IMG/VR virus record: IMGVR_UViG_3300011422_000010
Span: 1-38,529 of that record
Reading direction: 5' to 3' (one strand)
Length of the DNA: 38,529 nucleotides
Source: a virus
Taxonomy: Duplodnaviria; Caudoviricetes
Part shown: one piece after another, positions 13,966 through 38,529 of the stretch
Layout of the letters: each line of letters begins with the position of its first letter
Position numbering within the stretch: position 1 is the first letter of the stretch
The notes under the pieces: model-generated
Databases searched by the model: none
What the model was told of the DNA's origin: nothing
What the model saw: only the letters and a program-made list of their open reading frames with translations
Position numbers and translations under genes: made by a program

Positions 13966-13997
13966 GGAGCGGGGCCTCCGTGCCCCTGAAAGCCCCC

Positions 13998-14023
13998 GCC
14001 CCCTCCCCGCAGGGGGAAGGGGC
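13998..14023 (-). terminator. Hairpin just downstream of the capsid gene (stabiliser or attenuator)
   Basis: GCCCCTTCCCC-CTGC-GGGGAGGGGGC, 11-bp stem; no adjacent U-tract. Confidence 0.45.
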
Positions 14024-14038
14024 AAGGGGAAGAGATCA

Positions 14039-15604
14039 CTATGCGCCGGCCGCGCGGACGCCGGCCCGGAACTCCTGGAGCGCCACGCCCACGTCGATGA
14101 AGCCGCGGAGCGCGATGCCCAGAGTGTTGAAATCAGCCTCGGTCGTCTCGACCGTCGGCATGTAATTGCCGTTCAAGGCCACCACCTCGATGGTGGGCAG
14201 GTCGGCCGGGTTGGCGAGCAGGTACCAGGCGGTCGCGCTGTTGCCCGTGAAGGCGCCGTTGCTCATGTACGGCGAGCTGACCACCTCGTAGGCGCCGGCC
14301 AGTACGTTGCCCGACGGCGACAGCACGTTGGGAGCGGCCTGGGCCGTGTTGGTCGCCACCACGATCGTCGAGTTCATCAGGTTGAGCGCGGTGACGCGCA
14401 GGGCGGATGGGACCAGCAGGATCGCCGGGAAGATGCCCAGCGGCTGGCCGTCCGGGTCGGTCTGGAGCCGGAACACTTTGTCGGCTTCCGCCAGGGCGGT
14501 GAGCGACAGGGCCGACGTGCCGCCGGTCGTGACGTTGTTGTTGCCGGCGGTGAAGAAGGCGGAGTTGTTCAGGAACACAGTCCAGAACATCTCGTTGAGC
14601 CGGAGGGCGGCGCCGCGGCCGAGGCGCTGGCCGGCGGTCGTCAGGGCGCCCAGGTCGTCGTTGATCAGGTCCCGGCGGTCGATACCCAGCATGCGCGCCT
14701 GGGTGTCCGCCTGGTTGTTGTAAACGCGCTCGCCGATATCCCCGTGCTCGATCTCGCCGCCCGGCGGCAGCTTCTTGTAGATCAGCGAGCCGGTCAGGGA
14801 TGGCGTCGTGATCTGCTTGAAGTCGTTGACCGGGCGGGTGGCCGAGATCCGCTGCCAGGCGCTGTCGATCGCCATGAAGCCGACGCGCAGGAACTTGTTG
14901 GCGACGTTGGAGAGGATGTTGGGCAGCGAGTACGTCGACGGGCCGGACACGCCGGCGCGAATGTCGGTCATGAATGCGGAGCGGAGGGCGGCGTCCAGGT
15001 TGCCGCTCAGGCTCAGGCCGCGATAGCCGTTGCGATGGGCCGAGGTCAGGATCAGCTCGCCCAGGCCGAGGCCGTTTCGCCATTTCTTGCGGGCGGCTTC
15101 CAGCGTGCGGGCGTCAAAGTGCTTGTCGAGGTCGCGCAGGCCACCGGCCATGCACACGGCCGCTTCGACCACGTCGTTGGTGAGCTGGGTCGAGCGATCG
15201 ACGATGACGCCTGGGGCCCGGGGGCGCTCGCGGCGGATGAACTCCAGCTCGAGGCGATTGTCGTCCCAGCGGTCCGGGTCGGCGATGGCCTCGGCGCGGA
15301 TCTCTTCCACGGCGACCGCGCTGATGCGGCCGTCGTCCATGGCCCTGATCAGGGCGGCCTCGATGCGCTCCTCGTGCTCTTCCCGGATGCGCAGGGCCTG
15401 CAGCGTCTCCGTCATGCTCCGGGAGCCGGCCGGCCTGCGTTCAGCCGGCGGCGCCGGGGGAGCGGGCGGTGTCGCGGGAGGGCTCGCCGGGGGCGAGGCG
15501 GGCGTCTGCTCCGCCTTCCAGGCTGCCTGCAGGGCCGCCTTCTGGGTGTCGTTCAAGGCCGCGAGCTCGAAACCCTTGGCCACGAGCCATTGTTCGAAGG
15601 TCAT
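14039..15604 (-). CDS. Internally initiated scaffold-capsid product (521 aa)
   Basis: AAGGAG-TCTCGCCC-ATG in frame at 15604 (MTFEQWL), immediately after the protease domain. Confidence 0.65.
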   Translation of the reverse strand: MTFEQWLVAKGFELAALNDTQKAALQAAWKAEQTPASPPASPPATPPAPPAPPAERRPAGSRSMTETLQALRIREEHEERIEAALIRAMDDGRISAVAVEEIRAEAIADPDRWDDNRLELEFIRRERPRAPGVIVDRSTQLTNDVVEAAVCMAGGLRDLDKHFDARTLEAARKKWRNGLGLGELILTSAHRNGYRGLSLSGNLDAALRSAFMTDIRAGVSGPSTYSLPNILSNVANKFLRVGFMAIDSAWQRISATRPVNDFKQITTPSLTGSLIYKKLPPGGEIEHGDIGERVYNNQADTQARMLGIDRRDLINDDLGALTTAGQRLGRGAALRLNEMFWTVFLNNSAFFTAGNNNVTTGGTSALSLTALAEADKVFRLQTDPDGQPLGIFPAILLVPSALRVTALNLMNSTIVVATNTAQAAPNVLSPSGNVLAGAYEVVSSPYMSNGAFTGNSATAWYLLANPADLPTIEVVALNGNYMPTVETTEADFNTLGIALRGFIDVGVALQEFRAGVRAAGA

Positions 15605-17794
15605 GGGCGAGACTCCTTGTGCCAGGGGGCCCGTGGCGCCCAGCCCCGCCGCGACCGCGGCCGAGGTGTTGGGGTCGGCTCCCATCGGGACGAAACTGAC
15701 TTCACCCAGCGTGGTGGCGCGGGCGACGTAGATCGGGCCGCTGTAGGAGCGGCCGTTGACTTTCACGCTCTGATCGCGATCGACGAACTCCAGGCGTTCC
15801 ACGCTGGCCCCCACCGAGGCCTGCCAGGGGAAGCCGTTGTCGGCCAGGGCCCGCACTTCCTCGGCGGCATCCCCGACGCCGCTCATCACGCCGGCCACCT
15901 TCAGCCGCTGCTGGCTGATCTCGATGCTCTCGGTGTGGCCGACGATCAGACTCGCATCGTGATCGCGGAGAATGGGCCGCTGCTGCCCCGGGATGTTCAT
16001 GCCCTCGAGGTCCACCACGACGGGCCAGGCGAAGAAGGGGAGGCGCATGGCCACGCCGGTGTAGGCGGTCATGCGGAACTTGCGGAGGCGCTTGCTCTCG
16101 CCGTCGCCGGCCGCGGCCGCGAGAATCTCGAAGCCCTCACTGGCGCCGGTGATGGTGAAGCTGCTCGGCTCGCCGGCGGCGCGGAGGAATGCCGGGAGAT
16201 CGATCTCGGCGGGCCCGTGGCCATTGCGGTGGCCGTTGAGCCTATTCCGCGGCCGTGCCGCCTCGGCCTTCTCCTTGTCCCCTTGTCCGCTTGACTCTTC
16301 GTCGTCGTCCTCGGACGACGCCGGCTCGGTGGTCGCCGTACCTGTCATCGGCGGCACGCCCTCTTTTTCCATGAGTCGCAGCTCCCGCCCGCGCTGACGA
16401 ATGACTGCTTTCCAGTCCTGGCCGTACTCCGCGAGCAGCTCGGCCAGCGTGGTCGTGCAGTTGTTCAGGCGCTCGGTGTCCTGGCCGGCGGTGTCCTTGT
16501 CCATGCTCGGCCAGCCGGGCCAGTACCAGGCCTTCGGCAGGCGGGCGATGTCGATCTGCACGCCGGCCGGCAACCTGAGATAGCCCGGGAGCCGCTGCGC
16601 TTCCTTGGCCCAGGCGGCGTAGATGCGGTTCAAGACATTGCGATTGGCGAAGGCGCGATCGACCTTCAGGCCGCCGCGGTAGCCGAAATGATCGAGCTTG
16701 GCGCTCGAGAAGTTGTGCTGCGAGCTGTCGCCGGAGACGACGTTGGTCGGCATGCGCACCGGCCGGCCGCACTCGTTGAGGAGCTCGCGCTTGAAGGGGG
16801 TGAATTCCTTGGTCGGGTGCTCGGCCTTGAGCTGCGTGGCCTCGTAGCCGGCCGGCAGCATCGTCATCATGTTCCGCTCGATCTCGAGGGCATCGAACGG
16901 CTCGGGGGGCTCGACCTCGTCGGGGCTCGCCTCGCTCTTGATCAGGGCGGCGAAGCTGGCCGCCGTCTCCGCCGCACTCAGCGTCGCCAGCGTCCAGCGC
17001 CGCAGGTACGGGAAGAGCGCCAGGATCGCCGTCAGTTCGGGCACGCCGCGGAGCTGGCCGGGCCGATCGGCCCGGAACCAGTGGAGCACAAACGCCGCCG
17101 GCCAGACGTCCGCCTCGGCCTGGCCGAGGGCCTCGCTGGGGTGCTGCCGGAGGATCGTGTAGCTGACCGGGTTGCCGTAGGCGTCGTAGGTCGCGCCGTC
17201 GAGTTGCGTGTCGCTGCCAAAGCCGCCTTGCGGATCGGCGACCAGGTCCGCCTCGATCAGGCGGAGGTCGAGCTTCACGGCGTCATCGATCTTGGGGTTG
17301 GTGACCAGGAGCGCGAAGGCCTCGCCGTCGCGGTTCCGGGCCTGGTCCATGCAGTGGAGCTTCTCGGCCAGGCCGATCGCGTCCGCCCAGCGGGCAAACG
17401 CCTGCTCGACCGCCTCGTTGACGGCGTCATCGTCGGTGAGGACCTGCAAGGTCGGCCCGGTGCCGACCAGGTCGTCGGCCCGGCCGCGGACGATGCCGGC
17501 GCAATAGCCGCCGTTGTCGTACTCGTAGCGGCTCCGGTTGCGGAGCGTCTGCCGCACCGCGGCCGAGTTGGCGCTGGCGGCGGAGAGGCCGTCGGCGTTC
17601 GACCAGTGGCGGCGATTGTCTTCGTTGGTCTGGGCCGCGTCGTACTTGGCCTTCAGCGTCGCCATGCGCAGGCGCAGCACGCCATTGAGCCGTTCGAGCC
17701 GGCTCAGCGTTTGCGCCGGCGCGGACCGGGTTCGACCCCGCGCTGTGGATTTCCGGGAAGGCGCTGATCGGGTGCGTGGGCGGCGCTTGGCCAC
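14039..17794 (-). CDS. Fused lambda-family portal, prohead protease, scaffold and major capsid protein (Mu gpT-like)
   Basis: One 1251-aa ORF. Portal: RNRSRYE, RPGQLRGVP, NFSSAKLD. Acidic linker. Protease: AYTG, ILRDHD, VGH, GFPWQASVG, EVSFV. Capsid: ILSNVANKFL, VNDFK, LINDDLGAL, PAILLVP, WYLLANP. Confidence 0.9.
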   Translation of the reverse strand: MAKRRPRTRSAPSRKSTARGRTRSAPAQTLSRLERLNGVLRLRMATLKAKYDAAQTNEDNRRHWSNADGLSAASANSAAVRQTLRNRSRYEYDNGGYCAGIVRGRADDLVGTGPTLQVLTDDDAVNEAVEQAFARWADAIGLAEKLHCMDQARNRDGEAFALLVTNPKIDDAVKLDLRLIEADLVADPQGGFGSDTQLDGATYDAYGNPVSYTILRQHPSEALGQAEADVWPAAFVLHWFRADRPGQLRGVPELTAILALFPYLRRWTLATLSAAETAASFAALIKSEASPDEVEPPEPFDALEIERNMMTMLPAGYEATQLKAEHPTKEFTPFKRELLNECGRPVRMPTNVVSGDSSQHNFSSAKLDHFGYRGGLKVDRAFANRNVLNRIYAAWAKEAQRLPGYLRLPAGVQIDIARLPKAWYWPGWPSMDKDTAGQDTERLNNCTTTLAELLAEYGQDWKAVIRQRGRELRLMEKEGVPPMTGTATTEPASSEDDDEESSGQGDKEKAEAARPRNRLNGHRNGHGPAEIDLPAFLRAAGEPSSFTITGASEGFEILAAAAGDGESKRLRKFRMTAYTGVAMRLPFFAWPVVVDLEGMNIPGQQRPILRDHDASLIVGHTESIEISQQRLKVAGVMSGVGDAAEEVRALADNGFPWQASVGASVERLEFVDRDQSVKVNGRSYSGPIYVARATTLGEVSFVPMGADPNTSAAVAAGLGATGPLAQGVSPMTFEQWLVAKGFELAALNDTQKAALQAAWKAEQTPASPPASPPATPPAPPAPPAERRPAGSRSMTETLQALRIREEHEERIEAALIRAMDDGRISAVAVEEIRAEAIADPDRWDDNRLELEFIRRERPRAPGVIVDRSTQLTNDVVEAAVCMAGGLRDLDKHFDARTLEAARKKWRNGLGLGELILTSAHRNGYRGLSLSGNLDAALRSAFMTDIRAGVSGPSTYSLPNILSNVANKFLRVGFMAIDSAWQRISATRPVNDFKQITTPSLTGSLIYKKLPPGGEIEHGDIGERVYNNQADTQARMLGIDRRDLINDDLGALTTAGQRLGRGAALRLNEMFWTVFLNNSAFFTAGNNNVTTGGTSALSLTALAEADKVFRLQTDPDGQPLGIFPAILLVPSALRVTALNLMNSTIVVATNTAQAAPNVLSPSGNVLAGAYEVVSSPYMSNGAFTGNSATAWYLLANPADLPTIEVVALNGNYMPTVETTEADFNTLGIALRGFIDVGVALQEFRAGVRAAGA

Positions 17795-23955: not shown

Positions 23956-25164
23956 TTATTTGGAAAGCAAAGTTTCCGCGGCCGCGGCGTCGGCCGGGCC
24001 CGTATAGCGATAGGTCGAGATCGGCCGGCCGCCGAAGGTGGTCATGCCGCTGGCCGTGCGGGCCTGGGTGCCGACGTTGCGCCGGTGGCACACGCCGCGG
24101 CCGACCTCCTGCCAGTGCGCCGATCGGCGCAGCGTCCGGGCGAAATGGGCGGCCCCGGTCCCCAGGCGCAGTTCGAGGCCGGCGGCGCGATGAGCGGCGC
24201 CGAGGCGCTGTAGCAACATCATGCCCACGCCCAGGCCCTGCCAGTCGGGCAGCACCACGACGCGGTGCACGCGGCGGAGATCGTTTCGCCGCGCGTGCGG
24301 GAAGTTGAGGATCGCCGCGAACGCGACCGGCTGGCCGTCGATCGTCAGCACGAAGGCCCGGCACCCGGGCGACAGGTCCGCGCTCATGTAGTGGTGCAGC
24401 CGGAACAGGCGCCACACGGCACGGTCCGCCGCGTGGATCTCGCCGGCGAGCCGCGGCCGCGGGCCCGGAAGCCGCCACTCAAATCTCCACGGGCAGCCGG
24501 CGGCCGAGGGCGACGGCTCCCCGGCCTGGTCGAAAGGGCGCTGGCCGGCCGACCTCCGGATGAAGAGGAGCTCGCCGCCGCCGGGCTCCAGGATCCAGTC
24601 GGGCTGCAGCCAGTCGATGACGTCGTAATGACAGGTGACAGCGACAAAGCGTCGGCCGTTCTTGCGGACCCACTTCTGCACGGCGTGCGAACCGATCTTG
24701 GCGACCTGGCGATCGACGACCGAGGTGAACTCGTCGAGCACGATGGGTCGGTCCGCCGGCGTCTCCAGCAGCCGGCGGGCGATCTCGACGCGGAAGCGCT
24801 CGCCGTTCGACAGCACGCGGTAGGGCCGCATCCAGGCCGGCACCGTGTTGAAGCCGACCGCCTGGCACACCGCCGAGATCTCCTCCATCGACAGCCGCTG
24901 GTCAAAGTCGTCAACGACGCTCTTGCCGGTCCATTCGAGAGGCGGAGGCTCGCCCCAGACGTGCCGCATGACGCTCGACTTGCCCGAGCCCGACGGGCCC
25001 ACGATGAGGCCCACGCTCCAGGGCCTGGTCGGGTCATCGATGGGCAGCTCGCCGGCGAAGCGCAGTTTCGCCTTCTCCGCCGGCGGCACGTCGAACATGG
25101 CCGCGAGCTGCTTGACCCGCGCGGAGCGCGAGAGATCGGTTTCGAGGGCGAAGTCGATGTGCAT
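23956..25164 (-). CDS. ABC ATPase-GNAT acyltransferase fusion
   Basis: GPSGSGKS, LSNGE signature, VLDEF, TCH; then HHYMS and RVVVLPDWQGLGVG (acetyl-CoA-binding loop). No transmembrane partner. Confidence 0.88.
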   Translation of the reverse strand: MHIDFALETDLSRSARVKQLAAMFDVPPAEKAKLRFAGELPIDDPTRPWSVGLIVGPSGSGKSSVMRHVWGEPPPLEWTGKSVVDDFDQRLSMEEISAVCQAVGFNTVPAWMRPYRVLSNGERFRVEIARRLLETPADRPIVLDEFTSVVDRQVAKIGSHAVQKWVRKNGRRFVAVTCHYDVIDWLQPDWILEPGGGELLFIRRSAGQRPFDQAGEPSPSAAGCPWRFEWRLPGPRPRLAGEIHAADRAVWRLFRLHHYMSADLSPGCRAFVLTIDGQPVAFAAILNFPHARRNDLRRVHRVVVLPDWQGLGVGMMLLQRLGAAHRAAGLELRLGTGAAHFARTLRRSAHWQEVGRGVCHRRNVGTQARTASGMTTFGGRPISTYRYTGPADAAAAETLLSK

Positions 25165-26728: not shown

Positions 26729-27604
26729 TCATTCCCGTGAGGGGAACGCGCCGCTGATGGGTTGGCTGCTGCCGGCGGCTGAGGCGCCGGCCCCAGTCGG
26801 ACTGCCCTGCGGCGTCCACACGCCGCCCGGCGAGAACTGCAGGGCGGTGGCGGGCCAGGGCTGACAGAACGGGATCACCTCGTTCGCCGGCAAACCGCGG
26901 ATCGGCTCGAGATCCTCGTCCGTCGGCGACCAGCCGATCGGCGGACGCGTGGACGTGCCTTCCACGCTGACCGCGTATTGCATCGGCGCGTACGTCCTGA
27001 ATTTCTCCGGCGGGATCGTGAAGCTCGGGTCGCTCGCCTCCTCGCGCGTGTAGCCGAAGTAGCGCGTCGCCATGGTCACGAGGATGCGCTGAAGGTACGG
27101 GGCCACCGCTTCGTAGAACTGCCCCGAGATGTCGTGGGCGAGCTCGTTGTCGGAGTGCTGCATGGCCTCGGTGATCATGAGCATGGCCAGCTCGGCGGTG
27201 TCGCGCATGAACGTCTGACGGCAGCCGCGGTCGCCGTAGAAGGGGATCGGGTAGAGTACGAACATCTGTGGCGACGGCTTGGCGTGCGTGGCCATCAGTC
27301 GCTTGTCCTTGAAGTCGATGGCCAGGTCGGAGAGCCGCTTGCGCGACACGATCACGAGCTGGTGGATCTCCTCCATCACGTCCCGGCCGGGCGGCCGGTC
27401 CATCTTCCTGTCCTCGTAGTGCCAGTAGACGTGGAAGAGCTGGCGGCCGGCGAGGGTCACGATCTCGTGGATCTTGCCGTTGTAGGTGTGCAGGTAGCGG
27501 CCGGTCTGCGGCACCGCGCAGCCGAGCTCCCCCCACACGCCGTTCTTGTACCAGCAGGGCGCGTCGCTGCGGAACGGCGGGAGCTGCGTTTGCAGTTCGG
27601 GCAT
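26729..27604 (-). CDS. Hypothetical protein
   Basis: 291 aa, GC3-rich coding frame, AAGGA RBS. Confidence 0.7.
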   Translation of the reverse strand: MPELQTQLPPFRSDAPCWYKNGVWGELGCAVPQTGRYLHTYNGKIHEIVTLAGRQLFHVYWHYEDRKMDRPPGRDVMEEIHQLVIVSRKRLSDLAIDFKDKRLMATHAKPSPQMFVLYPIPFYGDRGCRQTFMRDTAELAMLMITEAMQHSDNELAHDISGQFYEAVAPYLQRILVTMATRYFGYTREEASDPSFTIPPEKFRTYAPMQYAVSVEGTSTRPPIGWSPTDEDLEPIRGLPANEVIPFCQPWPATALQFSPGGVWTPQGSPTGAGASAAGSSQPISGAFPSRE

Positions 27605-27634: not shown

Positions 27635-29263
27635 CTAAGAAGCGCGCTGTTTCACGTTCTGACCTGAATGGATCTGCTCGGCCAGCGACTCGATCACCGT
27701 GATGAACGGCAGGTTGCCCGGGTATTCGTCCGCCGCCCGCTTGAGCGCCTCGCCATAGGCGAAGCCCCAGCCGTCGGGCTCCTTCACGGTCACATACTCG
27801 CGCTGCCTCTCCACCACCTGCGGCGGCGGCGGGCCCTCTCGATAGATGACGCGCGGCGGCGGCTCCGGGATCGGTTCCGGAAGGCGATAGGAAGCTGGTT
27901 GCGCCGGCGCTCCCGCAGATGGCGGCGCGCTCGACCCTGTCGCGCGCCGCTGACGCCGGCGCAACCATGCCCGCAAGGCGAACCCGCCCAGGGTGATCCC
28001 CAAGCCGACGGGCCCGCTGATCGATAGCCCCAGGATCGCCGGCAGCCGGCTGAGCCAGGGGCCTACGGCCTCGATGACCGGCAGCGCCTTGTCGATGCCC
28101 TGCCGGGCCTCCTGGGCGTCCCTCTTCGCGGCGGTCGCTTTCTCCGCCGCTTGATCCGCCTGCAGGCTGATGTTTGAAAGGTCGGGCGCGCGGCCCGGTT
28201 CCCCCGGCACGCCGGGCGGGCCGGGCGGTCCGACTGGGCCCGCAGGACCAGGTGGCCCCGCAATCAACTGCACGCCCTCTCTTGGCGCGGGCGAGCTCGG
28301 CGGCGTCGTCAGCGGCGGGATGCGCGTGCCGCCGGCGGCGGGCGGATTGCCTCGCCGCGGCCAGCACCAGGCGATCCACGTCTGCTGCAGCTCGGCCAGG
28401 CTCTGGTAACCGTAATAGCGCTGGGCAGCGGCCTCCCACTGGTCGCCCATGCCTTCGCCGACGAACTTCAGGAACGTCGCCCGATCGCGCTGCTCCACCA
28501 GGAAGCGCGTGAGGCTGTAGCCCTGCGCGTAGAGCACCGAGAGGTCGTTCGCGCCCTTCGGATAATCCCGCAGGCACATCACCGTGTGTACGCTGAACGA
28601 ATGGCCGGCCCGGAGCTGATCGAGGCACAGCTCGTCGTGGCGCCGGCGTTCCTGGTCATCCTCCGAGAGGACCGCGGCCCCCTCGTCGGCCCAGCGCGGC
28701 ACCGGCCGGCGGAACTTGTACGCCAGCACCGTATGCGTGATCTCGTGAGGCAGCACGCTCTGGAGAATGCGGTCGAGCGAACCCTGCACGCTCATGTCCT
28801 GCGACTGGATCGTCCCCGGCCCGAACGCAAACACCGTGGCGCCGCCGGCGCCGCCGGCGGTGATGGTCACTTTGAGCGGGCAGCGCACGCCCCAGGCCGG
28901 CATCTCCCGGCCCAGCCATTCCACGGCTTTCTCACGCCGCCATTTCTCCGCCCATTCCCCGACGGTCTTGGCCGCGGCCGCCGGGTCATTGGTCCCGCCG
29001 GCGACGTGGATGCTGAAGTTCTCGGTCTGTGCGTGGGCGCCGCCCCGGGTCGCCTGGCGGGGCTGCGACCAGCCGGCCGGCGTCCCCGGCGTCTGGCCGG
29101 CCATGCGCGGGAGGCCGCGAACTGCGGCCATGGTGGGACCTCACGTGCCCCCCGGGGGACAAGCGGGCCCGATCGGCGCGCTGGGAAGCACGCGACCGGG
29201 CCCAGGGTTGGGCATGGCGCAGCCACTCGCGAAGATCAGTAGCAGCGCGGCCACCAGCTTCAT
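27635..29263 (-). CDS. Putative lipoprotein selenoprotein: peptidase MA-like HExxH domain, collagen stretch, coiled coil and TM (in-frame UGA at codon 41)
   Basis: GGAGGT RBS, MKLVAALLLIFASGC signal, CPPGGT-UGA-GPT in frame with 27635..29131; PHEITH...WADEG; GPP repeats; TM followed by RRRQRR. Confidence 0.65.
29113..29129 (-). promoter_or_regulatory. Candidate bacterial SECIS element
   Basis: GGCCGC-AGTTC-GCGGCC, 17 nt, beginning 11 nt after the UGA. Confidence 0.55.
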
Positions 29264-29458
29264 CAACCGGGTGACCTCCGGGGCATGGCGGACGTGCTCC
29301 TCAAGGAACCGCCGGAACTCCTCCACAGCGACCCGCCGGCAATGGGAGCCCGGCAGGCGAAAGCCGTTGAGCCAGCCCCGATCGATCCAGTTGGCCACAG
29401 TCTTCGGCGCCACGCTCATGGCCCTGGCGATCTTGCCGGTCGTGAGCTGCTTGGTCAT
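29141..29458 (-). CDS. Excisionase/MerR-like HTH protein, running in frame into the lipoprotein signal
   Basis: LTTGKIARAMSVAPKTVANWIDRGWLNGFRLPGSHCRRV; ATGA overlap with the upstream gene and GGAGG RBS. Confidence 0.8.
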   Translation of the reverse strand: MTKQLTTGKIARAMSVAPKTVANWIDRGWLNGFRLPGSHCRRVAVEEFRRFLEEHVRHAPEVTRLMKLVAALLLIFASGCAMPNPGPGRVLPSAPIGPACPPGGT

Positions 29459-30072
29459 GGCCGCCTCCGGGACAGTCCGCACTTGCAGGCCACGTGCAGC
29501 GAGTTGTAGACCTCGATCCAGTCCTCGCCGTAACGGCATCGGTCATCGATGACGTCGGGAGTCACCGCCCGCGACGGCAAGCCGAAGGTGTAGGGGTTGT
29601 GCTGAAGGCGACGCGGCCAGCCCCAGTCATAGGCCCAGGCGACCAGGTTGCCGCAGGTCTTGTAGGGTAAGACGCCCAGGGTGCGGCTGAACCAGGTGGT
29701 CGAGCAGAGACCGTCGAGAGCGTAGAGGGGGAGCTTGAGCGGCGCGTACCAGTCGCCGGTCAGCTCGAGGGCCTTGGCGGCGACTTGGCGGCGCTCCACG
29801 TCGCTCAGGCGCACGTTCCGCCAGATCACAATCTCCTGGCCCTGGTAGCGCTCCAGCGGCGTGCGTGTGACGCGCCAGAGCGATTCGACGACCTCGGGCG
29901 TGCTGTTGAGGTCGCCCAGGGCCAGGGCGACGTGTGAGACGCGCGCCTCGTTGTCGAGGCCCTTGCCCTGCAGGAGCTGGAAGGCGCGGATGAGCCGGCT
30001 CGTGCGGCTCCACGAGCGGGAGAGCACGATGTCGGCCGGGAGCAGCTCGGGAATCGGAGCGCAGACCCTCAC
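29455..30072 (-). CDS. Permuted papain-like NlpC/P60 amidase (YiiX/YebB-like)
   Basis: PADIVLS, SHVAL (His before Cys), VVES, TCGNLVAWAY, VTPD. Confidence 0.78.
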   Translation of the reverse strand: MRVCAPIPELLPADIVLSRSWSRTSRLIRAFQLLQGKGLDNEARVSHVALALGDLNSTPEVVESLWRVTRTPLERYQGQEIVIWRNVRLSDVERRQVAAKALELTGDWYAPLKLPLYALDGLCSTTWFSRTLGVLPYKTCGNLVAWAYDWGWPRRLQHNPYTFGLPSRAVTPDVIDDRCRYGEDWIEVYNSLHVACKCGLSRRRP

Positions 30073-30365
30073 GCGACATCCCTTTCGCTGGGGGTGCAGG
30101 GGCTGACGCCCCCGACTCCGTTGTGCGAGGGCGGCTCAGGGCGGTGGTGGCCGCCTTCAATGCGATCGAGCCGGGTGCAGACGTCATGCTGCAGTGACTT
30201 GAGGGCTCTGAAGAAACCCCGACGCGCTCGGCGCTGGTCTGTGCGCTGATCCGCGATCAGCTTGGGGATCGCGCGGCGCACCAGGTACCAGTGCTCGTAC
30301 AGCAACGCGGCGAGCAGGATGCCGCCGAGCCCCCATTTGACGAGTTCCTGGAGGATGGTGTCCAT
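30069..30365 (-). CDS. Small membrane protein, holin-like
   Basis: N-terminal TM (WGLGGILLAALLY) followed by a basic helical tail; first gene after the late promoter. Confidence 0.55.
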   Translation of the reverse strand: MDTILQELVKWGLGGILLAALLYEHWYLVRRAIPKLIADQRTDQRRARRGFFRALKSLQHDVCTRLDRIEGGHHRPEPPSHNGVGGVSPCTPSERDVA

Positions 30366-30444
30366 TGGGGCGCGTCGAGACCGGTCCACCAGTTGTCTGT
30401 TCCGGTGCGGCGGACCGATGAGCACTCGCGGGGTCGACCTGGTT

Positions 30445-30487
30445 GGCGTCCCTGCCGGCCGGGTCCCCGACGCCGTCCCTGGCGTCG
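30445..30487 (-). promoter_or_regulatory. Two AGGGAC-loop hairpins (CsrA/RsmA-type sites) in the late leader
   Basis: CGACGCC-AGGGAC-GGCGTCG and GGC-AGGGAC-GCC. Confidence 0.55.
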
Positions 30488-30500
30488 AGCGCTCGTCCGC

Positions 30501-30529
30501 ACCCTAATAGGCTGTCGGCATGAGGGCAA
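30501..30529 (-). promoter_or_regulatory. Putative late-operon promoter
   Basis: TTGCCC-17 nt-TAGGGT in the gap upstream of the lysis/packaging genes. Confidence 0.45.
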
Positions 30530-30606
30530 GCGCGAATGTCCGATTACAGCGGCCTTTGCGGGGGCACCAAAGGGCCAGAAGCGCTACGCCGGCCCGCACG
30601 GTTTGC

Positions 30607-31011
30607 CTAGTCGGCGTGGTCCGGGCGGCGGATGAGACGGGCGAAGGTCCAGTCGGCCAGCTCCGCGCGCGTCCCCTGGGCGGCGCATTTGCACGCGGCC
30701 TCGAGGGCCCGCACCGCCGGCGTGTCGTCCGCCGGCACGATGCCGACGATCGGCCCCTCGACGGCCTCGATGACGTCGAGCAGCGTGATCCGCTCCGGCG
30801 CCCGCCGCAGTCGATAGCCGCCGTTGGGCCCGCTGGTGCTGCGCAGGATGCCGGCCGCCACCAGCCGCTTCAGGCCCTTCATCATGGTGCGGGGGGGGAT
30901 GCCGCCGGCGGCCTTGCCCAGAGTGGCGGACGAGCAGGCCCGGCTGGGCGAGGTGCTCGCCAGGTGGAACACGGCGAGGGCGCAGTTGGTGGCCATCGAG
31001 CCGGGCTTCAT
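30607..31011 (-). CDS. Rrf2-family transcriptional regulator
   Basis: LKRLVAAGILRSTSGPNGGYRL...ITLLDVIEAVEG. Confidence 0.88.
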   Translation of the reverse strand: MKPGSMATNCALAVFHLASTSPSRACSSATLGKAAGGIPPRTMMKGLKRLVAAGILRSTSGPNGGYRLRRAPERITLLDVIEAVEGPIVGIVPADDTPAVRALEAACKCAAQGTRAELADWTFARLIRRPDHAD

Positions 31012-31022
31012 GCAGGGGGGCC

Positions 31023-32579
31023 TCAGTCCTCCAGGATCCGGACCTTGGCCGCCGGGGCCTTCTGGTACTTCTGCCCCTTGCCCGAGCCCTCGATGAGCAG
31101 GTAGCCGTCGGTCGCAAACGACCGGCAGAAGTTGGAGACGGAGGGCATGGCGATGCTGGCCCCGCGCCGGCGCAGCTCCATGAAAGCGGCATTGGCCGGC
31201 ATCGGCTGATCGAAGAAGCCCTCGGCGATCAGTTGGGCGAAACGCCCCTGCGGGGTGTCGCCCTTGATCTCCAGCACCTTGCGCTCGACGCGCACCTGCA
31301 GCTCCGGCTGGGACAGGACGATGCGGATCACCTCGGGGTCCTTGGGCAGCTCCTGGATGAGCCGCCTCTTGATGGCCTGGTAGAGCTTCTCCAGGTCGCC
31401 GGTGTCGCTCGCCGGGTGGCCGTTCGGGTAGGGAGGGTCCCGCGGATCCGCGGGCGGAACCGCGGCGGGCTTGCTGTTGCTGCTGCGGAGCCCGTCCAGG
31501 GTTTCTTCAAGAGCCCGGATGCGTTGCTTGAGTTGTTGATTCTCGGCCCGCAGGGCCTCGGCCTGTTCGCTCGTCACTGCATTGCTCCTCTCCGCGGCCG
31601 TGGGCCGCTTGACTCGATCGACACTGAGTTCCCCCAGCGCGATCCGTCGTGCCTCATCAGCCGGCATCCAGGCCGGCTGCACGTAGACCTTGACCGTGCG
31701 GTCCTTCCAGCACGCGTAGAACTGGCCGCGCTCCAGCTCGGCGATCTGGCCGGGCTTGGGCCGCTTGATGTTGGCGGGGATGTTGGCCAGGTTCCGCCGG
31801 ATCTCATTAGCCTCGCGCTGCACGCCGATCAGCCACACCGTGCAGCCGCGGAGGATCACCTTGTCGACGCCGGCCATGTCCTGGGAATCGACCCAGATGA
31901 AGTTGCCGATACCGGCGCCCTTGCGGACCAGCTCGACGGCGCCGGCCTTCACTGGCGAGTTCTTGCCCTCGGGCACGAACTCCCAGGCCTCCGGGACGAC
32001 GGTCACCACGCCGTGCTCGCGCTCGTTGACCCAGTCGATCGCCGAGCGCACGAAGAGCATCTGCATGGCCGCCTGGTAGCCGCTGACGTCCATGACGTTC
32101 AGCCCCGGCCGCAGGCTTACCCCTGCGGCGAGCGGCGTCCGGCCGATCTCGGGCACGATCAGCTCGAGGTAGGCGTCGAGCTGGGTATAGACCCCTTCGT
32201 TGATGCCCTTCGCTTTCACGAGCGCCTTGCGGACCTCCTGGTGGACCTCGGCCAGCGTGCGCGTCGTCCGGCAGATCTTCATAATCCACGGCCGCAGGAA
32301 CTTATTCTTCTCCTGCAGGGTGGCGTCGATGATCGAGGTCACAAACTGCCAGTCGGCGCGATCGCGGAAGTAGGGCGCCAGGCGGTTGCCGCCGGCGAAG
32401 CTGGCCTCGCCCCGCTTGGTGACGAACGCGATCGCCGGCACTCCCGCGCGATAAACGAGGGCCTCCAGCGTCGTGGTCTTGCCACTCTCCTGGGTCTGGC
32501 CCGTGACGGCTAGGTGCTTGAGCGGGATCTCGACGGGCTCGCCGGTGTCGACTTCGAAGCCGAGGTGGAGCGTGGTCAT
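31023..32579 (-). CDS. HerA/FtsK-like P-loop ATPase with coiled coil and C-terminal wHTH-like region
   Basis: HLAVTGQTQESGKTT, VVPEAWEF, RKG, DSQ...VDK. Confidence 0.75.
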   Translation of the reverse strand: MTTLHLGFEVDTGEPVEIPLKHLAVTGQTQESGKTTTLEALVYRAGVPAIAFVTKRGEASFAGGNRLAPYFRDRADWQFVTSIIDATLQEKNKFLRPWIMKICRTTRTLAEVHQEVRKALVKAKGINEGVYTQLDAYLELIVPEIGRTPLAAGVSLRPGLNVMDVSGYQAAMQMLFVRSAIDWVNEREHGVVTVVPEAWEFVPEGKNSPVKAGAVELVRKGAGIGNFIWVDSQDMAGVDKVILRGCTVWLIGVQREANEIRRNLANIPANIKRPKPGQIAELERGQFYACWKDRTVKVYVQPAWMPADEARRIALGELSVDRVKRPTAAERSNAVTSEQAEALRAENQQLKQRIRALEETLDGLRSSNSKPAAVPPADPRDPPYPNGHPASDTGDLEKLYQAIKRRLIQELPKDPEVIRIVLSQPELQVRVERKVLEIKGDTPQGRFAQLIAEGFFDQPMPANAAFMELRRRGASIAMPSVSNFCRSFATDGYLLIEGSGKGQKYQKAPAAKVRILED

Positions 32580-32779
32580 GGGCGCGCGCCCTCCTCGGTC
32601 TGGGGTCGAAAGCCCTTCGCAGCACCTGCCTTCAACAGTTCCTCGCAGCGCTCGACGTCAACGTCCGGCCCGCCGGTCACCAGGCCGTACTTGCGGGCCG
32701 AATCCACCTGCAGCCAGATCTCGGCCAGGTTCACGGCCTCCTGCCATTCGGCATCGGTCTGTGGCATGCGGCGCTTCAC
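32576..32779 (-). CDS. Hypothetical protein
   Basis: 67 aa; 4-bp overlaps with both neighbours. Confidence 0.65.
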   Translation of the reverse strand: MKRRMPQTDAEWQEAVNLAEIWLQVDSARKYGLVTGGPDVDVERCEELLKAGAAKGFRPQTEEGARP

Positions 32780-33519
32780 GCGCGGGCCTCCGGTGGAAAG
32801 GTCTGCACGTAGCGGCGCTCCAGCTCGCGCCAGACGCCGTCGCTGCCTTCGCGGAGCAGCAGCTCGTAGACCTGGTCGGCGTCCGACGAGCTATCCGGGT
32901 AGCAGGGCTGGCCCTCGGTGTATTCACAGACAACCAGATCCCCGTACTGGGCCGGCTCGATGATGGGCCCCGTGACGGGATCGACGCCGAGCCAGCGGGG
33001 CCCGCAGACCCTCTGCCGGCTGGGCTCGTGGCCCTCCCACAAGGGGCGTGTGCTGTGGATCTGCACACAGTGCAGCGGCAAGAACGTGCTCCTGATCTCG
33101 GACTCGTCGAAGAGCAGCTCGGCCGAGAGCACTGCGTCGGTCACGGCGGGCAGCATCCAGTTGGTGAAGAGGATGAACACCACAGCGCCCTCGGGGCCCT
33201 TGAGGGCCATGTGCAGATCGACGCCGTGGATGCCGAAGTTCTTGCTCGGGTCCGCATCCCGGCGATCGAACGCGGGCGTCAGCTCGATGGACCGTACCAA
33301 CGTCATGGGCCTCGCCGCGGCGTGCACCTGGTCGATCCACCGACGCAAGTTCCGCAGCTCGATCCGGGCCTGCCGGATCTGCTCCTCGTATTGCCGTTGC
33401 AACGGCTTCCAGCCCCGGCCGTCTTCGACCAGGACGTCGAGCAAGAGGTCCAGCTCGCGCACGTGCCGATAGCCGCGCTGGACCAGGTCCCGGAGGCGTA
33501 AGCTGGCCAGTCCGGTCAT
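32776..33519 (-). CDS. Phage hypothetical protein
   Basis: Start at MTGLAS via ATGA overlap; KNFGIHGVD...KGPEGAV segment. A second possible start at MTLVRS. Confidence 0.65.
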   Translation of the reverse strand: MTGLASLRLRDLVQRGYRHVRELDLLLDVLVEDGRGWKPLQRQYEEQIRQARIELRNLRRWIDQVHAAARPMTLVRSIELTPAFDRRDADPSKNFGIHGVDLHMALKGPEGAVVFILFTNWMLPAVTDAVLSAELLFDESEIRSTFLPLHCVQIHSTRPLWEGHEPSRQRVCGPRWLGVDPVTGPIIEPAQYGDLVVCEYTEGQPCYPDSSSDADQVYELLLREGSDGVWRELERRYVQTFPPEARA

Positions 33520-33794
33520 GGCGCCACATACTCCTTCGCCGCGTCCCCGGCGGGCCGGCGGCGTCCGGTATCTGGATGCCGCGACCAGCCGGGCGGTTCG
33601 GGCTCGGTCTCTGGGTCCCAGGCCAGCATGGCGGCGACCGCCACCTCGGGCGAATCGTATCACCACACCGCGTTGTAGCCCCACGCGTCGCCGGCGGGGC
33701 CGATGCCCAGTCGGGCCCGGTCGCCGAATAACGGCAGGATCTCGATCGCGCGGCCGTCGTCGAGATGGCGGCGGGCTATCACTCCGTTGGGCAT
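33516..33794 (-). CDS. Putative 92-aa selenoprotein, absent from the ORF track (W-UGA-Y)
   Basis: MPNGVIARRHLDDGRAIEILPLFGDRARLGIGPAGDAWGYNAVW-UGA-YDSPEVAVAAMLAWDPETEPEPPGWSRHPDTGRRRPAGDAAKEYVAP; GGAGAG RBS; stop overlaps the next ATG. Confidence 0.7.
33630..33645 (-). promoter_or_regulatory. Candidate bacterial SECIS element
   Basis: GGTGGC-GGTC-GCCGCC beginning 14 nt after the UGA. Confidence 0.6.
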
Positions 33795-34892: not shown

Positions 34893-37285
34893 GCGTCGTC
34901 CTCCGCGTCGCTGTGATCCCAATCGATCTCCGGGTGCGCCTTCCGCAGCTTGGCCCGGGCCGACTTGCCGCGCGAGGAGGCGGTTGCCGGGTTCTTGTCC
35001 TTGGCCTCCTTCTTCGCGGCCTGCTTCGCCGCCTTGCGCTCGGCGACCAGGTCGGTCTTGGCCCGCTTCTCGAACGCCTTCCACTCGACGCCGGCGAACG
35101 CGAGGATCTTGTCCTCGACGCCCTTCACGTGGCTCCAGTGGCCGTGGGTGATGAAGTCGGTCGCGTGCAGGTCGAAGATCAGCGCCAGGAGCTGCGGCAT
35201 CGTCGCTGTGGCGATCCACTCCTGCCACGGCTTGAACTCCGCGCGGTGGCCTTCGCGCGCGCTGCCCTGAATGCCCCAGCGCTTCGCGAGCGCTTCCGCG
35301 TCCCCGCCCATGTCCAACTCGCGGGCCGTGGCGACCTCGGCCAGGAGCTGCAGGAACTGCTGGGACTTCTTGTCGAGCACGATGGCCAGGCACTTCGTGG
35401 CCGCCAGCCCCGCCTGCACGAGCGCCAGCGCGGCGTTATGTTCCGCCCGCTTCCGGATCTCGAAACGATCGGGCGCCGCCTTGGCCGGCTTCGGTTGCGC
35501 GCGCGTGGCCGCGCCCTTCTTGCTCCGCAGCTTACGCATAGCGCTCTTGGCCTGGGCTGTCGGCGCCAAGAGCCGCACCTGGCCGCTCGGGTCGAAGGCC
35601 CGCACGGTCAGCTCCGCGGCCGCCTCGCCGAGGGCCTCCCGGTAGGTCACGGAGCGGCCGCCGTGCCACTCCGTGTCGCTCAGCTCGACGTAGCCGCTGT
35701 CATACTTCAGGCGGCCGTGCTCGAAGAGCTTCTTGGCCTGGTTGGGGGCGAGCACCTTCTTGCCCTCTTCCTGCAGCCGGGCGCGGGCCCGCTCCTCATG
35801 GGCCTCGACCTTCTGGCGGAAACAACCAGGGTCGGTGCAGATGTCGGCCCGTGAGCCGGGGTAGAGGTCTTTGGCGTTGCCGGTCCGCTTGGGGCAAGAG
35901 GTACAGGCGCCCGCAACAGGCAAGAGCTCGGCGTCGTCGCGGCTGAAAGGCGCCTGCTTGAGCTCGACCATGTAGTCGGATTCGATGAACGCCTTGGCCG
36001 TGCGTAGCGCCATCGGCCCCTTGTCGAAGTGGTAATAGCGGCCCACCCGACCCTGGAAATTGCCCCCCTTGATGATGCGCGACGCGGCCTCGGCGCGCAG
36101 CTTGTCGGCGGGGATCCGGGCGATCAGCTCCGCGGTGCTGGCGGGGATCGTGCCGTCGGCGAGCGCCTTCCGGGCCGGCTCGGGCAGCCCGGTGAGCTTG
36201 AGCCGCGCGTACACGTAGGTCTTGGCCTTACCGATCTTCTTCGCGAGGTCCTCGATGGTCAGGCCGTGCTCGTCGAGCAGCTTGCGGTAGTGGGCCGCCT
36301 CCTCCAGCGGGGAGATGCCGGAGCGCTGCAGGAAGGTGACGAGCTGGATCTCCAGGACCTGGAGGTCGGCCAGCTCGCGCACCACCACCGGCAGCCGGCC
36401 GAGCTCGGCGAGCTTGGCGGCCCGGTAGCGCTTCTCGCCATCCACGATCTCGTAGGCCTCGCTGCCCGGCTTGAGCTTCTCCGCCGCCAGGAGGGCTGCG
36501 GGGGCGGGCCGCACCACCAGGGGCACGATCACCCCTTTGGCCCGGATGCTCTCGGAGAGCTCGGCGACCTCGGTCTCGTCGAAGTGCTTCCGCGGATTGG
36601 TGGGCGACGGGATGAGCTTTTCCAGCGGCACGAGCGGGCGATACGCTTCCTCGGCTGCCTGCTGGGCTTGCTGGAACGCGGCCCCCCCCGGCGTCGATGT
36701 GGAGGTGAGGCAGGGTGGCGTCGCGCCATTCGCGACCGGTGCCGAGGCCGGTTGCTTTGCTTGGGCCCGCGAAGTGGGGAGCTCGGGCAGTCGGGCGGCG
36801 AGCCGGCCGTCGTGGTCGGCGAGCGGGTCCCCTTCGTCCGTGCGCTGAAGCTGCTCAAGCACGAAGTGACCGACCCGCCAGATAGCGTCCTCGAGCTGCG
36901 AGTCAGTGATGACGTCGAGCTTCTTGACCGCGCGGACGCGGCCCCAGGCGGCGTAGGCGTCGCGGGCATCGCCCAGGAGGGCGCCCACGCAGCGGAAGCC
37001 GCACTCCTCGAAGGCTTCGAGCACCTTGGCCGCCAGGCCCACCCGCTTGAGCGGCGCCTCGATCAAGGGCAGGCAGGCGCTGCAGAGGTCCGACTTCACC
37101 CAGTGGCACGGCTCGCCCGTACGCTCGACGCAGAGCATGCAGTCGCCGTTCGTGCACCGGCACACCCGACAGCGATCGCCGCGGACCGCCTTGGCGCCAT
37201 GGGACTGGTTGCGCCGCCCGGCCATCTCGGCCGCGGCCGCCTCGACGCCGGCCCGCCGGCTGCGTTTCATGGTTCCGCTGGACAT
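34889..37285 (-). CDS. Multidomain ParB/RepB/Spo0J-family protein
   Basis: NPRKHFD...LSESIRAKGVIVPLVVRP...YEIVDGEKRYRAA, HTH, CTSCPKRTG...CTDPGCF; Cys-rich N-terminal extension. Confidence 0.85.
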   Translation of the reverse strand: MSSGTMKRSRRAGVEAAAAEMAGRRNQSHGAKAVRGDRCRVCRCTNGDCMLCVERTGEPCHWVKSDLCSACLPLIEAPLKRVGLAAKVLEAFEECGFRCVGALLGDARDAYAAWGRVRAVKKLDVITDSQLEDAIWRVGHFVLEQLQRTDEGDPLADHDGRLAARLPELPTSRAQAKQPASAPVANGATPPCLTSTSTPGGAAFQQAQQAAEEAYRPLVPLEKLIPSPTNPRKHFDETEVAELSESIRAKGVIVPLVVRPAPAALLAAEKLKPGSEAYEIVDGEKRYRAAKLAELGRLPVVVRELADLQVLEIQLVTFLQRSGISPLEEAAHYRKLLDEHGLTIEDLAKKIGKAKTYVYARLKLTGLPEPARKALADGTIPASTAELIARIPADKLRAEAASRIIKGGNFQGRVGRYYHFDKGPMALRTAKAFIESDYMVELKQAPFSRDDAELLPVAGACTSCPKRTGNAKDLYPGSRADICTDPGCFRQKVEAHEERARARLQEEGKKVLAPNQAKKLFEHGRLKYDSGYVELSDTEWHGGRSVTYREALGEAAAELTVRAFDPSGQVRLLAPTAQAKSAMRKLRSKKGAATRAQPKPAKAAPDRFEIRKRAEHNAALALVQAGLAATKCLAIVLDKKSQQFLQLLAEVATARELDMGGDAEALAKRWGIQGSAREGHRAEFKPWQEWIATATMPQLLALIFDLHATDFITHGHWSHVKGVEDKILAFAGVEWKAFEKRAKTDLVAERKAAKQAAKKEAKDKNPATASSRGKSARAKLRKAHPEIDWDHSDAEDDA

Positions 37286-37704
37286 GGTGGGTCCTCGTGA
37301 AAGCGTTTGTAGTGGCCGCAGTAGCGGTTGGCCACGTCGTTCGGATTCCAGCTCGTGAGGCCGCAGACGAGGCACTCTATGCCCGGGCCGTGGCTGGCCT
37401 CACGTAACACGTAGGTCGGCTCCGGAGGGAGCTCGTCGAGTTCGCCGACGGGGTGATAGTGCACCTGCTGGTCGGTGATCTCGATCGCTTCCCGGATCCC
37501 CCGACGGCTGTCGATACAGGCGTCGCACAGGACCGCGACAGCTCGGCCTTCGTCGCCGCTGATCACGTTGCCGCTGACGGGGTACTTCCACGTCGCCCGA
37601 CGGTTGAGGGCGCACAGGTTCACGCGGCCGATCTTGCCGCCACAGGCCCCACAACGAACGTGGGCCTGGATGAACTCGACGTAGTTGTCCCTGGTCGCGC
37701 TCAT
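37267..37704 (-). CDS. Zinc-finger hypothetical protein
   Basis: MSATRD start; CGAC, CDAC, CLVC...YCGH. Confidence 0.7.
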   Translation of the reverse strand: MSATRDNYVEFIQAHVRCGACGGKIGRVNLCALNRRATWKYPVSGNVISGDEGRAVAVLCDACIDSRRGIREAIEITDQQVHYHPVGELDELPPEPTYVLREASHGPGIECLVCGLTSWNPNDVANRYCGHYKRFHEDPPCPAEP

Positions 37705-37950: not shown

Positions 37951-38528
37951 CTTTCGGCCTCCGGCCAATGCAGGCCCTTCTTCCGAAACCGCCACTTGGC
38001 ACTGCCCACGAAAAACATCCAGCGTTTGGTCCGGAGCTCGCCGGCCTTTTGCAGCCGGTCCATGTCGGCCACGATGGCGTCGGGGAAACTCATCGAGACC
38101 TGGCCGGCCAGCATGGCCTCGGCGATACGCACGCACGGCTGCTTGCGGAGCCCGCGATCGCCGACCAGGTCGAGCATCTGGTGGACCAGCTTCTCGATCC
38201 TCACCAGGTGCTCGAACTCGGGCGGCAGCGGCGACCCTCCTGCCGGCGGCGGCTTCGGGATGGCGTCCCGCAGCACGTCCGCCAGCGGCACGGGGCCCCC
38301 TTCGAAGACCTTCGGTGGGCGCGCGCTTTTTTCCTCCTTCGGCACCTTCGACCCTTCGCGCGAAGGTGGCGAAGGAGAGATTAATTCTTCTCTTTGCGAA
38401 GGTTTGCGAAGGTAATTACCTTCGCGCGCGCGCGCGCTGGGCGCTTCAGACGACGGCCGCGGTTCCGCGGCACGCGGTTCCGCGGCACGCGGTTCCGCGG
38501 CACGCGGTTCCGCGGCACGCGGTTCCGC
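37947..38528 (-). CDS. Replication initiator-like protein, C-terminal part (5' truncated)
   Basis: Frame is open from the window edge: (AEPRA)n...ARAREG...helical C-terminal domain. Internal repeats resemble those of lambda O-type initiators. Confidence 0.55.
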   Translation of the reverse strand, partial: AEPRAAEPRAAEPRAAEPRAAEPRPSSEAPSARAREGNYLRKPSQREELISPSPPSREGSKVPKEEKSARPPKVFEGGPVPLADVLRDAIPKPPPAGGSPLPPEFEHLVRIEKLVHQMLDLVGDRGLRKQPCVRIAEAMLAGQVSMSFPDAIVADMDRLQKAGELRTKRWMFFVGSAKWRFRKKGLHWPEAER

Positions 38529-38529
38529 G
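38458..38529. repeat. 15-bp perfect tandem repeat, at least 4.8 copies (iteron-like)
   Basis: Unit CGCGGTTCCGCGGCA, cut by the window edge. Confidence 0.9.

Follow-up and report, generated by a model that had tools for sequence, protein, structure and literature searches.

The virus record IMGVR_UViG_3300011422_000010 (Duplodnaviria; Caudoviricetes) is a stand-alone record of 38,529 bases, the whole of which was analysed here and is called the window; its G+C content is 68 % and its likely genes lie on the minus strand. Two of these genes, both predicted to encode selenoproteins, contain an in-frame UGA codon followed by a short hairpin of the selenocysteine insertion sequence (SECIS) type: gene 1, encoding a small phage protein, and gene 2, encoding an exported, membrane-anchored peptidase (sites 1 and 2, respectively; Table 1). 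The original prediction had noticed two such sites about 4.5 kb apart, and both were found, separated by 4,519 bases, with hairpins that fit the published bacterial SECIS geometry. A Pfam scan of the 18 larger open reading frames (ORFs) identified, among others, a lambda-type terminase, a fused portal–capsid protein, tail genes and a ParB-like protein, and the phage is likely to be temperate.

Table 1. Genes, recoding sites and neighbouring features in the window
Feature	Position	Strand	Basis
Gene 1, 92-aa small phage protein, W-U-Y ... GWxRHPxTGRRRPxGD family, predicted selenoprotein	33516..33794	-	Homologue alignments
In-frame UGA, site 1	33660-33662	-	Codon 45 of 92-codon frame; UGA 34 / Cys 27 at column (72 viral relatives)
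SECIS-type hairpin, site 1	33630..33645	-	6 bp, loop GGUC, loop start 21 nt after UGA
Gene 2, 542-codon exported membrane-anchored peptidase, predicted selenoprotein	27635..29263	-	Sequence, Pfam, homologues
In-frame UGA, site 2	29141-29143	-	Codon 41 from ATG at 29263; between signal peptide and catalytic domain
SECIS-type hairpin, site 2	29113..29129	-	6 bp, loop AGUUC, loop start 18 nt after UGA
Hydrophobic signal peptide, lipobox-like ASGC end, GGAGG upstream	29219..29263	-	Sequence, hydropathy
Peptidase_MA_2-like stretch, HEITH motif	28367..28750	-	PF13485, E 8e-6, below curated cut-off
291-aa protein, no known family	26729..27604	-	Conserved downstream slot neighbour, used as bait
HTH_17 (excisionase-like) ORF	29264..29458	-	PF12728, E 3e-5, below cut-off; in frame with gene 2, no stop between
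Papain-like amidase homologue, permuted, His47 and Cys140 conserved	29455..30072	-	Conserved upstream slot neighbour
Small ORF, one hydrophobic segment, holin-like	30069..30365	-	Position and shape; no Pfam hit
Rrf2-family regulator	30607..31011	-	PF02082, E 1e-19; between genes 1 and 2

Searches with the gene 1 protein returned seven homologues, and a wider search 949 representatives at E 0.001. The UGA of gene 1 sits in a W-x-Y motif. A survey of related phages for Cys/UGA pairs, which had been proposed with the original prediction, was carried out as a DNA-level scan, which yielded 72 viral loci and showed TGA at this column in 34 of them, a Cys codon in 27, TAG in one and other codons in 10. 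Trp was never found at the column in the 73 rows made up of these loci and the window, and Cys was the commonest sense residue. Sets of called proteins leave out the UGA alleles, which are split by gene callers; among 156 called homologues that were aligned, the column was filled in 155, with Cys in 85, Asp in 35, Glu in 12 and Gln in six.

The family was also represented by 17 loci in GTDB, with seven TGA alleles and eight Cys alleles; L105, which is frameshifted and has neither Cys nor UGA, and the spurious L106 were left out, and L094 and L095, being identical, were tallied both ways, as genomes and as a single locus. Records with the TGA allele were titled Thermomicrobiales, Gemmatimonadetes, a proteobacterium (sharing its locus with the Gemmatimonadetes record), Planctomycetota, Caldilineaceae, Chloroflexota and Solirubrobacterales. 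A phylogenetic tree of 84 rows, reconstructed with the site and the 12 following residues masked and resting on few columns with rough support, required six changes between stop codon and other states, at least three of them forced by well-supported branches. Scans of viral contigs with the single proteins P0001, P0002 and P0288 gave no usable relatives, and two weak loci were excluded from all counts. Clustering of the gene 1 neighbourhoods revealed no conserved partner beyond close relatives, the neighbours varying widely.

The prototype of a selenoprotein gene with a SECIS inside the ORF, read by SelB, is fdhF of E. coli. The bacterial consensus, as given in the available part of PMC13188914, is a stem of 4–16 bp with a G in the first two loop positions, located 16–37 nt downstream of the UGA, and the hairpin at site 1 agrees with it in its G/GU loop, its distance of 16–37 nt and its stem of at least 4 bp. 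When a rule for this site was applied to the family (a stem of at least 4 bp closing a loop at +21, with GU at +22/23), 31 of the 35 TGA alleles (34 viral and the window) passed, compared with none of the 27 Cys alleles. The difference persisted after near-copies had been thinned (19/23 TGA vs 0/22 Cys, p = 4e-9) and in GTDB, where all seven TGA alleles and none of the eight Cys alleles passed. Covariation was examined in 28 of the 35 TGA sequences, seven near-copies being left out. The 8-pair stem contained 35 double changes, a count that none of 500 shuffles equalled and that exceeded all slid controls, bearing in mind that kinship can beat shuffles without structure; the number of stem pairs with a double change did not exceed the shuffled values (103 of 500). 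Among eight closely related sequences, synonymous divergence (pS) was 0.00 in the hairpin codons, compared with 0.32 upstream and 0.41 downstream, and a downstream non-synonymous value (pN) of 0.07 indicated purifying selection on the protein past the UGA.

One locus of the gene 1 family (L019:3124-3180) has UAG in place of UGA at the Sec (selenocysteine) column, followed by the same 7-bp GGUC hairpin; this may be UAG-encoded Sec or a mutated UGA. A tRNA-Sec that reads UAG occurs in some actinobacteria (Geodermatophilus/Blastococcus), for which no paper was found in the literature searched. Near gene 1, a zinc ribbon at about 37267-37400 (minus strand) has YCGHY where its relatives in L026, L027 and P0249 have CxxC, so that one ligand is lost; in P0249 the same zinc ribbon is fused to the site-1 domain.

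Gene 2 begins with a signal peptide bearing a lipobox-like Cys15, followed by a CPPGGT-U motif (U marking the UGA) and an HExxH domain of the MA type; next come a Pro/collagen-like linker, a hydrophobic segment and a conserved C-terminal domain. The ASGC at the end of the signal peptide resembles a lipobox. Past the UGA, 501 codons are open. The peptidase domain scored 26.2 bits against PF13485, compared with a cut-off of 32.4, with the HEITH motif present, and its homologues (up to 58 % identity) are labelled Gemmatales/Gemmataceae where named. In all the cellular homologues shown, the protein opens with a signal peptide just ahead of the peptidase domain. The window ORF as called lacks one, and a signal peptide was found upstream of the site-2 UGA; similarly, the sole full-length phage orthologue has no signal as called, and its DNA contains an in-frame TGA behind a signal. 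The closest relative of the C-terminal part of gene 2 is P0288 (59 %), which has a trypsin domain and no signal peptide as called, and which may hide a fifth UGA. The HTH_17 ORF is open into the signal peptide of gene 2, as either a frameshift fusion or a dual-start arrangement.

Gene 2 occupies the middle of a conserved planctomycete-phage cassette (26729-30365, minus strand), also present in L075–L077, L079, L081 and L083–L087, in which a papain-like amidase is followed by a gene whose domains are swapped (the slot gene) and by a 290-aa protein of no known family. With the downstream neighbour as bait, four viral and 10 metagenome slot loci were identified. Eight distinct slot genes had intact N-termini (the window, L075, L076, L077, L079, L083, L084 and L086); rows at contig ends (L081, L082, L085, L088 and L089), duplicates (L078 and L087) and the window's own contig (L080) were left out. 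A single internal TGA was found in four of the eight, at codon 41 in the window, 32 in L075, 20 in L076 and 66 in L083, always behind a hydrophobic N-terminus and with the remainder of the frame open. Since these four TGAs fall within the first 66 of about 500 codons and no other internal stop is present, random decay appears unlikely. Hairpin loops start at +18 in the window (6 bp), +26 in L075 (5 bp), +21 in L083 (7 bp) and +20 in L076 (bulged), and the loop letters CAGTT recur at the slot in two reading frames.

Among the slot genes, a Cys directly follows the signal in L077 (AQC) and in L084 (AQCVGGTC, which resembles the CPPGGT-U of the window), a thioredoxin domain occurs in L077 and L079, and L086 is without Cys motif, thioredoxin domain or UGA. 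A thiol or predicted selenol unit is thus located at the N-terminus in seven of the eight genes, a pattern suggestive of redox reactions or cross-linking in the envelope. Envelope proteins rich in cysteine are known from planctomycetes. The catalytic domain of the slot gene varies between MA peptidase, trypsin-like and thioredoxin, with the hydrophobic segment and the C-terminal domain retained. Unimolecular spanins combine an N-terminal lipoprotein signal with a C-terminal transmembrane segment and have no enzyme domain. Spanin-type features are present in gene 2 of the window (the lipobox-like Cys and the hydrophobic segment); the lipobox Cys is missing in L075, L076 and L083, and an enzyme domain occurs in all slot genes. 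As had been proposed, gene 2 lies in a lysis-type setting, adjoining the holin-like ORF and the amidase homologue. Syntenic homologues of the latter in L075 and L077 match PF05708 below the cut-off, and the window protein itself has no Pfam hit.

A stricter bacterial SECIS-type rule (stem of at least 5 bp and a GU-containing loop 16–38 nt downstream), drawn from the consensus in the available part of PMC13188914 after the sites had been seen, was passed by only sites 1 and 2 among the 26 likely window gene frames ending in TGA; the background was 27 of the 836 TGA trinucleotides in the window. UGA is the terminal stop of 24 other likely window genes, and genes end in TGA at 615, 3141, 10421 and 21694, exactly as originally stated. 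All 133 Trp codons in the 35 TGA alleles of the gene 1 family are TGG and many of these alleles themselves end in TGA, which argues against code reassignment; a phage in which UGA has become a sense codon was ruled out on these grounds. The conserved UGA, its Cys counterparts, the hairpins and the normal UGA stops instead favour site-specific recoding by the Sec machinery of the host, as the original prediction had it. That prediction was also borne out in finding no selA, selB, selC, selD or UCA-anticodon tRNA: no tRNA was detected in the window by ARAGORN, Rfam gave no match there, and none of the 18 larger ORFs scanned against Pfam was a sel gene.

Among the runs listed, 13 contain near-identical DNA, of which 12 sampled freshwater sediment and one groundwater; at least half of the words were present in 10 of them, and no RNA data set was among these runs. 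Contigs of run X1, which may be the source of the record, and of run X4 cover both UGA sites, and those of X3 and X5 cover 29141. No alternative letter was found at the covered sites; this sample support rests on the contigs of four runs, and such contigs drop rare variants.

The host is probably a planctomycete of the order Gemmatales, and it is likely to be Sec-competent. The selA gene was detected in 188 of 251 sampled Planctomycetota and, within the order that has the closest peptidases and is Gemmatales by protein identity, in 138 of 151 genomes. Of the peptidase-positive genomes in the phylum sample, which number 14 and belong to another order in 13 cases, two had selA. Portal homologues were present in 39 of 267 genomes of the Gemmatales-like order (best 54 %). 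Two genomes (G436 and G487) contained selA, selB, selD and tRNA-Sec, and G590 was negative for selA yet possessed selB. In GTDB, a tRNA-Sec match of at least 66 bits occurred in the same eight of 17 genomes as selA, with a UCA anticodon in the six fetched. In the Planctomycetota genomes G594 (L137) and G008 (L138), the SelD gene itself contains an in-frame UGA, and the loop of the hairpin downstream of it includes GU; SelD of G436, G487 and G598 has Cys instead. Formate dehydrogenases of five Gemmatales-like genomes had no internal stop and hence offered no host SECIS for comparison. Alignments A4 and A5 had no match in the 267 genomes of the likely host order, so no prophage copy links either gene to a host in that order.

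Several observations weigh against Sec insertion or against the proposed host. Of the 155 called homologues with a residue at the site-1 column, 53 have Asp, Glu or Gln, implying that a chalcogen is not essential there, and the folding of the hairpins was ordinary compared with shuffles (z = 0.19, 0.21, -0.84 and -0.50). At site 2, L076 fails the perfect-stem rule, the loop of L083 is GGC rather than GU, and the loop distance varies; the slot N-termini are not alignable, so the Cys residues of L077 and L084 are placed by like position only; and an ATG at 29131, four codons past the UGA, is preceded by GAGGT 6 nt upstream. On the host side, portal homologues with 46–51 % identity are found in a second order too, where selA is rare and to which 13 of the 14 peptidase-positive genomes belong; at a stricter cut-off, 15 of 151 genomes of this order had such a portal homologue (46–47 % over near-full length). 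The genomes with the closest peptidase (G472 and G502) had no detectable selA, selB or clear tRNA-Sec, and neither selA nor selB was detected in G732, which has the closest portal and is probably incomplete, as the EF-Tu-level match given by other genomes is missing too. The suggested correlation between UGA alleles and the Sec trait of the host ran in the expected direction, with selA in five of seven TGA-allele and two of eight Cys-allele GTDB genomes, but was not significant (p = 0.13, or 0.10 by distinct loci).

On balance, the window probably carries two unrelated genes whose internal UGA codons are read as Sec by the host machinery and which arose and act independently. From sequence comparison, Sec insertion is very likely at site 1 and likely at site 2. 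SelB and tRNA-Sec of the host would read each UGA by means of the hairpin just downstream, and the two genes would have arisen and would operate separately, not as one switch. Both products would be truncated in hosts that lack Sec, probably as a cost that the phage can bear in a Sec-rich host group rather than as a selected control.

An origin of both UGAs in assembly errors, or in nonsense mutation of a prophage undergoing decay, is scarcely credible. The Tyr replacing a ligand Cys in the nearby zinc-ribbon ORF and the HTH_17 fusion, which may be a frameshift, would suit decay, but the same UGA is found on long branches in 34 viral and seven genome loci with purifying selection downstream, the four slot UGAs are independent and unaccompanied by other internal stops, and the letters agree across the contigs of four runs. 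The UGAs are therefore not specific to this assembly, and conservation, the link to the hairpin, covariation, purifying selection and the slot UGAs together largely refute this explanation. Read-through of the UGA with Trp or Cys, either leaky or stimulated by the hairpin and involving no Sec, is highly improbable. Hairpin-stimulated UGA read-through is known in other viruses (PMC8310308, available part), and site 1 tolerates several residues; against this, the site-1 column never has Trp in 73 rows and mostly has Cys among sense codons, and the hairpin has the loop letters and spacing of the bacterial SECIS model (PMC13188914, available part) and is missing from the Cys alleles. A further alternative accepts Sec at site 1 and takes the site-2 UGA as the true stop of the HTH_17/signal ORF, with the peptidase restarting at ATG 29131 and having no signal. 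The position of that ATG and its GAGGT, the HTH_17 domain in the upstream frame, and the fact that gene callers begin the protein at or past this ATG all speak for a restart. It is nevertheless unlikely: the first in-frame start after the UGA is 22 codons on in L076 and 25 in L083, with no clear Shine–Dalgarno sequence, the signal ORF has a GGAGG of its own, the hairpin starts at the last base of ATG 29131, and a protease without a signal would be stranded although all cellular homologues shown are exported.

The original prediction had gone further and treated the two UGAs as a selected checkpoint, tying an early protein and an envelope protease to the Sec capacity or selenium status of the host, perhaps with the Rrf2 regulator. 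This regulator does lie between the two genes, as described, yet neither it nor the ATPase between the genes had a match in any of 102 related loci (tblastn; flanks 3–10 kb). No other record was seen to hold both genes: the four slot-bearing viral records, which are 46, 31, 89 and 20 % complete and in which the positive control matched, yielded no member of the site-1 family, and the contig lists of the site-1 family and the site-2 slot share no record. The neighbours of site 1 vary as well. A checkpoint of this kind is therefore improbable, its strongest form being for site 2 alone. There, the place of the UGA behind the signal peptide is kept in four of eight genes across differing catalytic domains and unalignable N-termini, failed decoding would leave a stub of 19–65 residues, gene 2 adjoins lysis-type genes, and control of late or lysis genes by stop codons has been proposed for other phages (10.1101/2021.08.26.457843, available part). 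Conversely, sister genes with Cys or thioredoxin at the same place point to chemistry, and the proposals of lysis timing and a host-range filter fared poorly, given that a lysis role for gene 2 follows from position only and that Sec and Cys interchange.

A coupled regulatory system of both genes is accordingly unlikely, and separate acquisition of each gene in a host group rich in Sec accounts for the data with no need of coupling. A variant confined to site 2 is also unlikely, namely that the Sec codon is a portable gate behind the signal peptide of a lysis-side envelope protease, kept while the catalytic domain is swapped, so that export, and hence lysis or remodelling, would follow the selenium status of the host. 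If true, this gate, together with a second widespread selenoprotein, would give the phage a small selenoproteome of its own.

Returning to two independent selenoproteins, gene 1 would encode a 92-aa accessory protein in which one position is filled by Sec, Cys, Asp, Glu or His. It had no match in Pfam, PHROGs or NCBIfam. Its predicted model, with a mean predicted local distance difference test (pLDDT) score of 84.8, has a four-strand meander, a helix and a Trp/Arg-rich tail, the Sec site lying on the strand at 42–46. Fold searches returned nothing at E 0.001 in PDB or BFVD and a best Z of 4.8 in a wide search, and so established neither a known nor a new fold for this model. Its ESM Atlas neighbours fall in unnamed clusters at 0.88–0.90 that are 71–86 % viral. 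His73, Glu66, Glu88 and Arg72/78/80 are highly conserved and no second conserved Cys is present. A thioredoxin-like redox selenoprotein was rejected for gene 1, which has no partner Cys in a CxxU or UxxC arrangement and whose model is a meander plus helix. Tentatively, since there is no second conserved Cys, the exchange of Sec with Cys, Asp, Glu and His may be easier to reconcile with a metal ligand or general nucleophile than with a disulfide redox pair; such a Sec could act with His73, Glu66 and Glu88 beside an Arg-rich tail binding nucleic acid or phosphate, which we put forward as a doubtful proposal. The product of gene 2 would be an exported, membrane-anchored protease carrying an N-terminal selenol. 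Because this selenol stands where sister genes have CxxGxC or thioredoxin, it might form or cleave disulfide-type links in the envelope, at the protease's site of action, a conceivable role that falls somewhat short of being probable.

Other features of the window were noted in passing. A single frame of 1,251 codons (14039-17794, minus strand) combines portal and major capsid domains on either side of a probable protease. Two accessory enzymes are fusions as well: a glycosyltransferase-like domain with a methyltransferase, downstream of the capsid gene (12655-14025, minus strand), and an ABC-type ATPase with a GNAT acetyltransferase, ahead of the terminase (23956-25164, minus strand). A tail-assembly-chaperone-like ORF (8313-8804, minus strand) overlaps a second open frame running to 8032. 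Such a layout is expected for a programmed frameshift; no slippery site was identified at the overlapping frames (8032-8804, minus strand). At the left end, positions 1-72 (plus strand) encode the last 23 residues of a protein on the opposite strand, possibly host flank, which by its motif resembles a glyoxalase/VOC-type protein. Short tandem repeats occupy the right end (about 38460-38529).

One small phage would thus hold two selenoprotein candidates. About half of the examined viral gene 1 members carry the UGA and are consequently split by gene callers, so phage gene catalogues would miss such proteins, and the dependence of phages on their hosts would extend to the Sec decoding machinery. 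Two concrete genes with a well-defined hairpin of 16–17 nt lend themselves to a direct test. Gene 2 would, if true, be an unusual selenoprotein: an exported protease in which Sec is not part of the catalytic domain. The literature searched, which included few subscription papers, yielded none that names a phage selenoprotein or uses the phrase 'phage-encoded selenoprotein'; the supplementary data of large surveys of selenoproteins may contain such sequences. In a 2026 catalogue of 119 prokaryotic selenoprotein families, the words phage, virus and viral never occur in the main text (PMC13188914, available part), and neither protein matches an entry of its Table 1, as available, by name, domain or motif.

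The two genes resemble the bacterial selenoprotein genes described in the available part of PMC13188914 in the in-frame UGA, the Cys counterparts (for gene 2 by like position) and the geometry of the downstream hairpin. They differ in being borne by a phage without sel genes, in that gene 1 has no partner Cys or thioredoxin fold, and in that the Sec of gene 2 lies outside its catalytic domain. Reliance of a virus on host Sec machinery has a parallel in the glutathione peroxidase selenoproteins of the poxviruses molluscum contagiosum and fowlpox (PMC8310308, available part); those are captured host genes of eukaryotic viruses with a eukaryotic SECIS, whereas gene 1 belongs to a mostly viral family and has a bacterial signal. 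In phages with reassigned stop codons (10.1101/2021.08.26.457843, available part), an in-frame stop beside lysis-type genes could likewise gate expression, but the present genes each have a single UGA, Trp is invariably encoded by TGG, many genes terminate in UGA, no suppressor tRNA is present, and the site aligns with Cys and is followed by a SECIS-type hairpin. The nearest cellular counterparts of gene 2 are the exported Peptidase_MA_2 (PF13485) proteins of planctomycetes (Gemmatales/Gemmataceae), which share an HExxH domain, up to 58 % identical, after a signal peptide. To this arrangement the phage form adds a Pro-rich N-terminal linker bearing the UGA, a collagen-like linker and a hydrophobic anchor, together with a C-terminal domain common to the trypsin- and thioredoxin-bearing slot genes.

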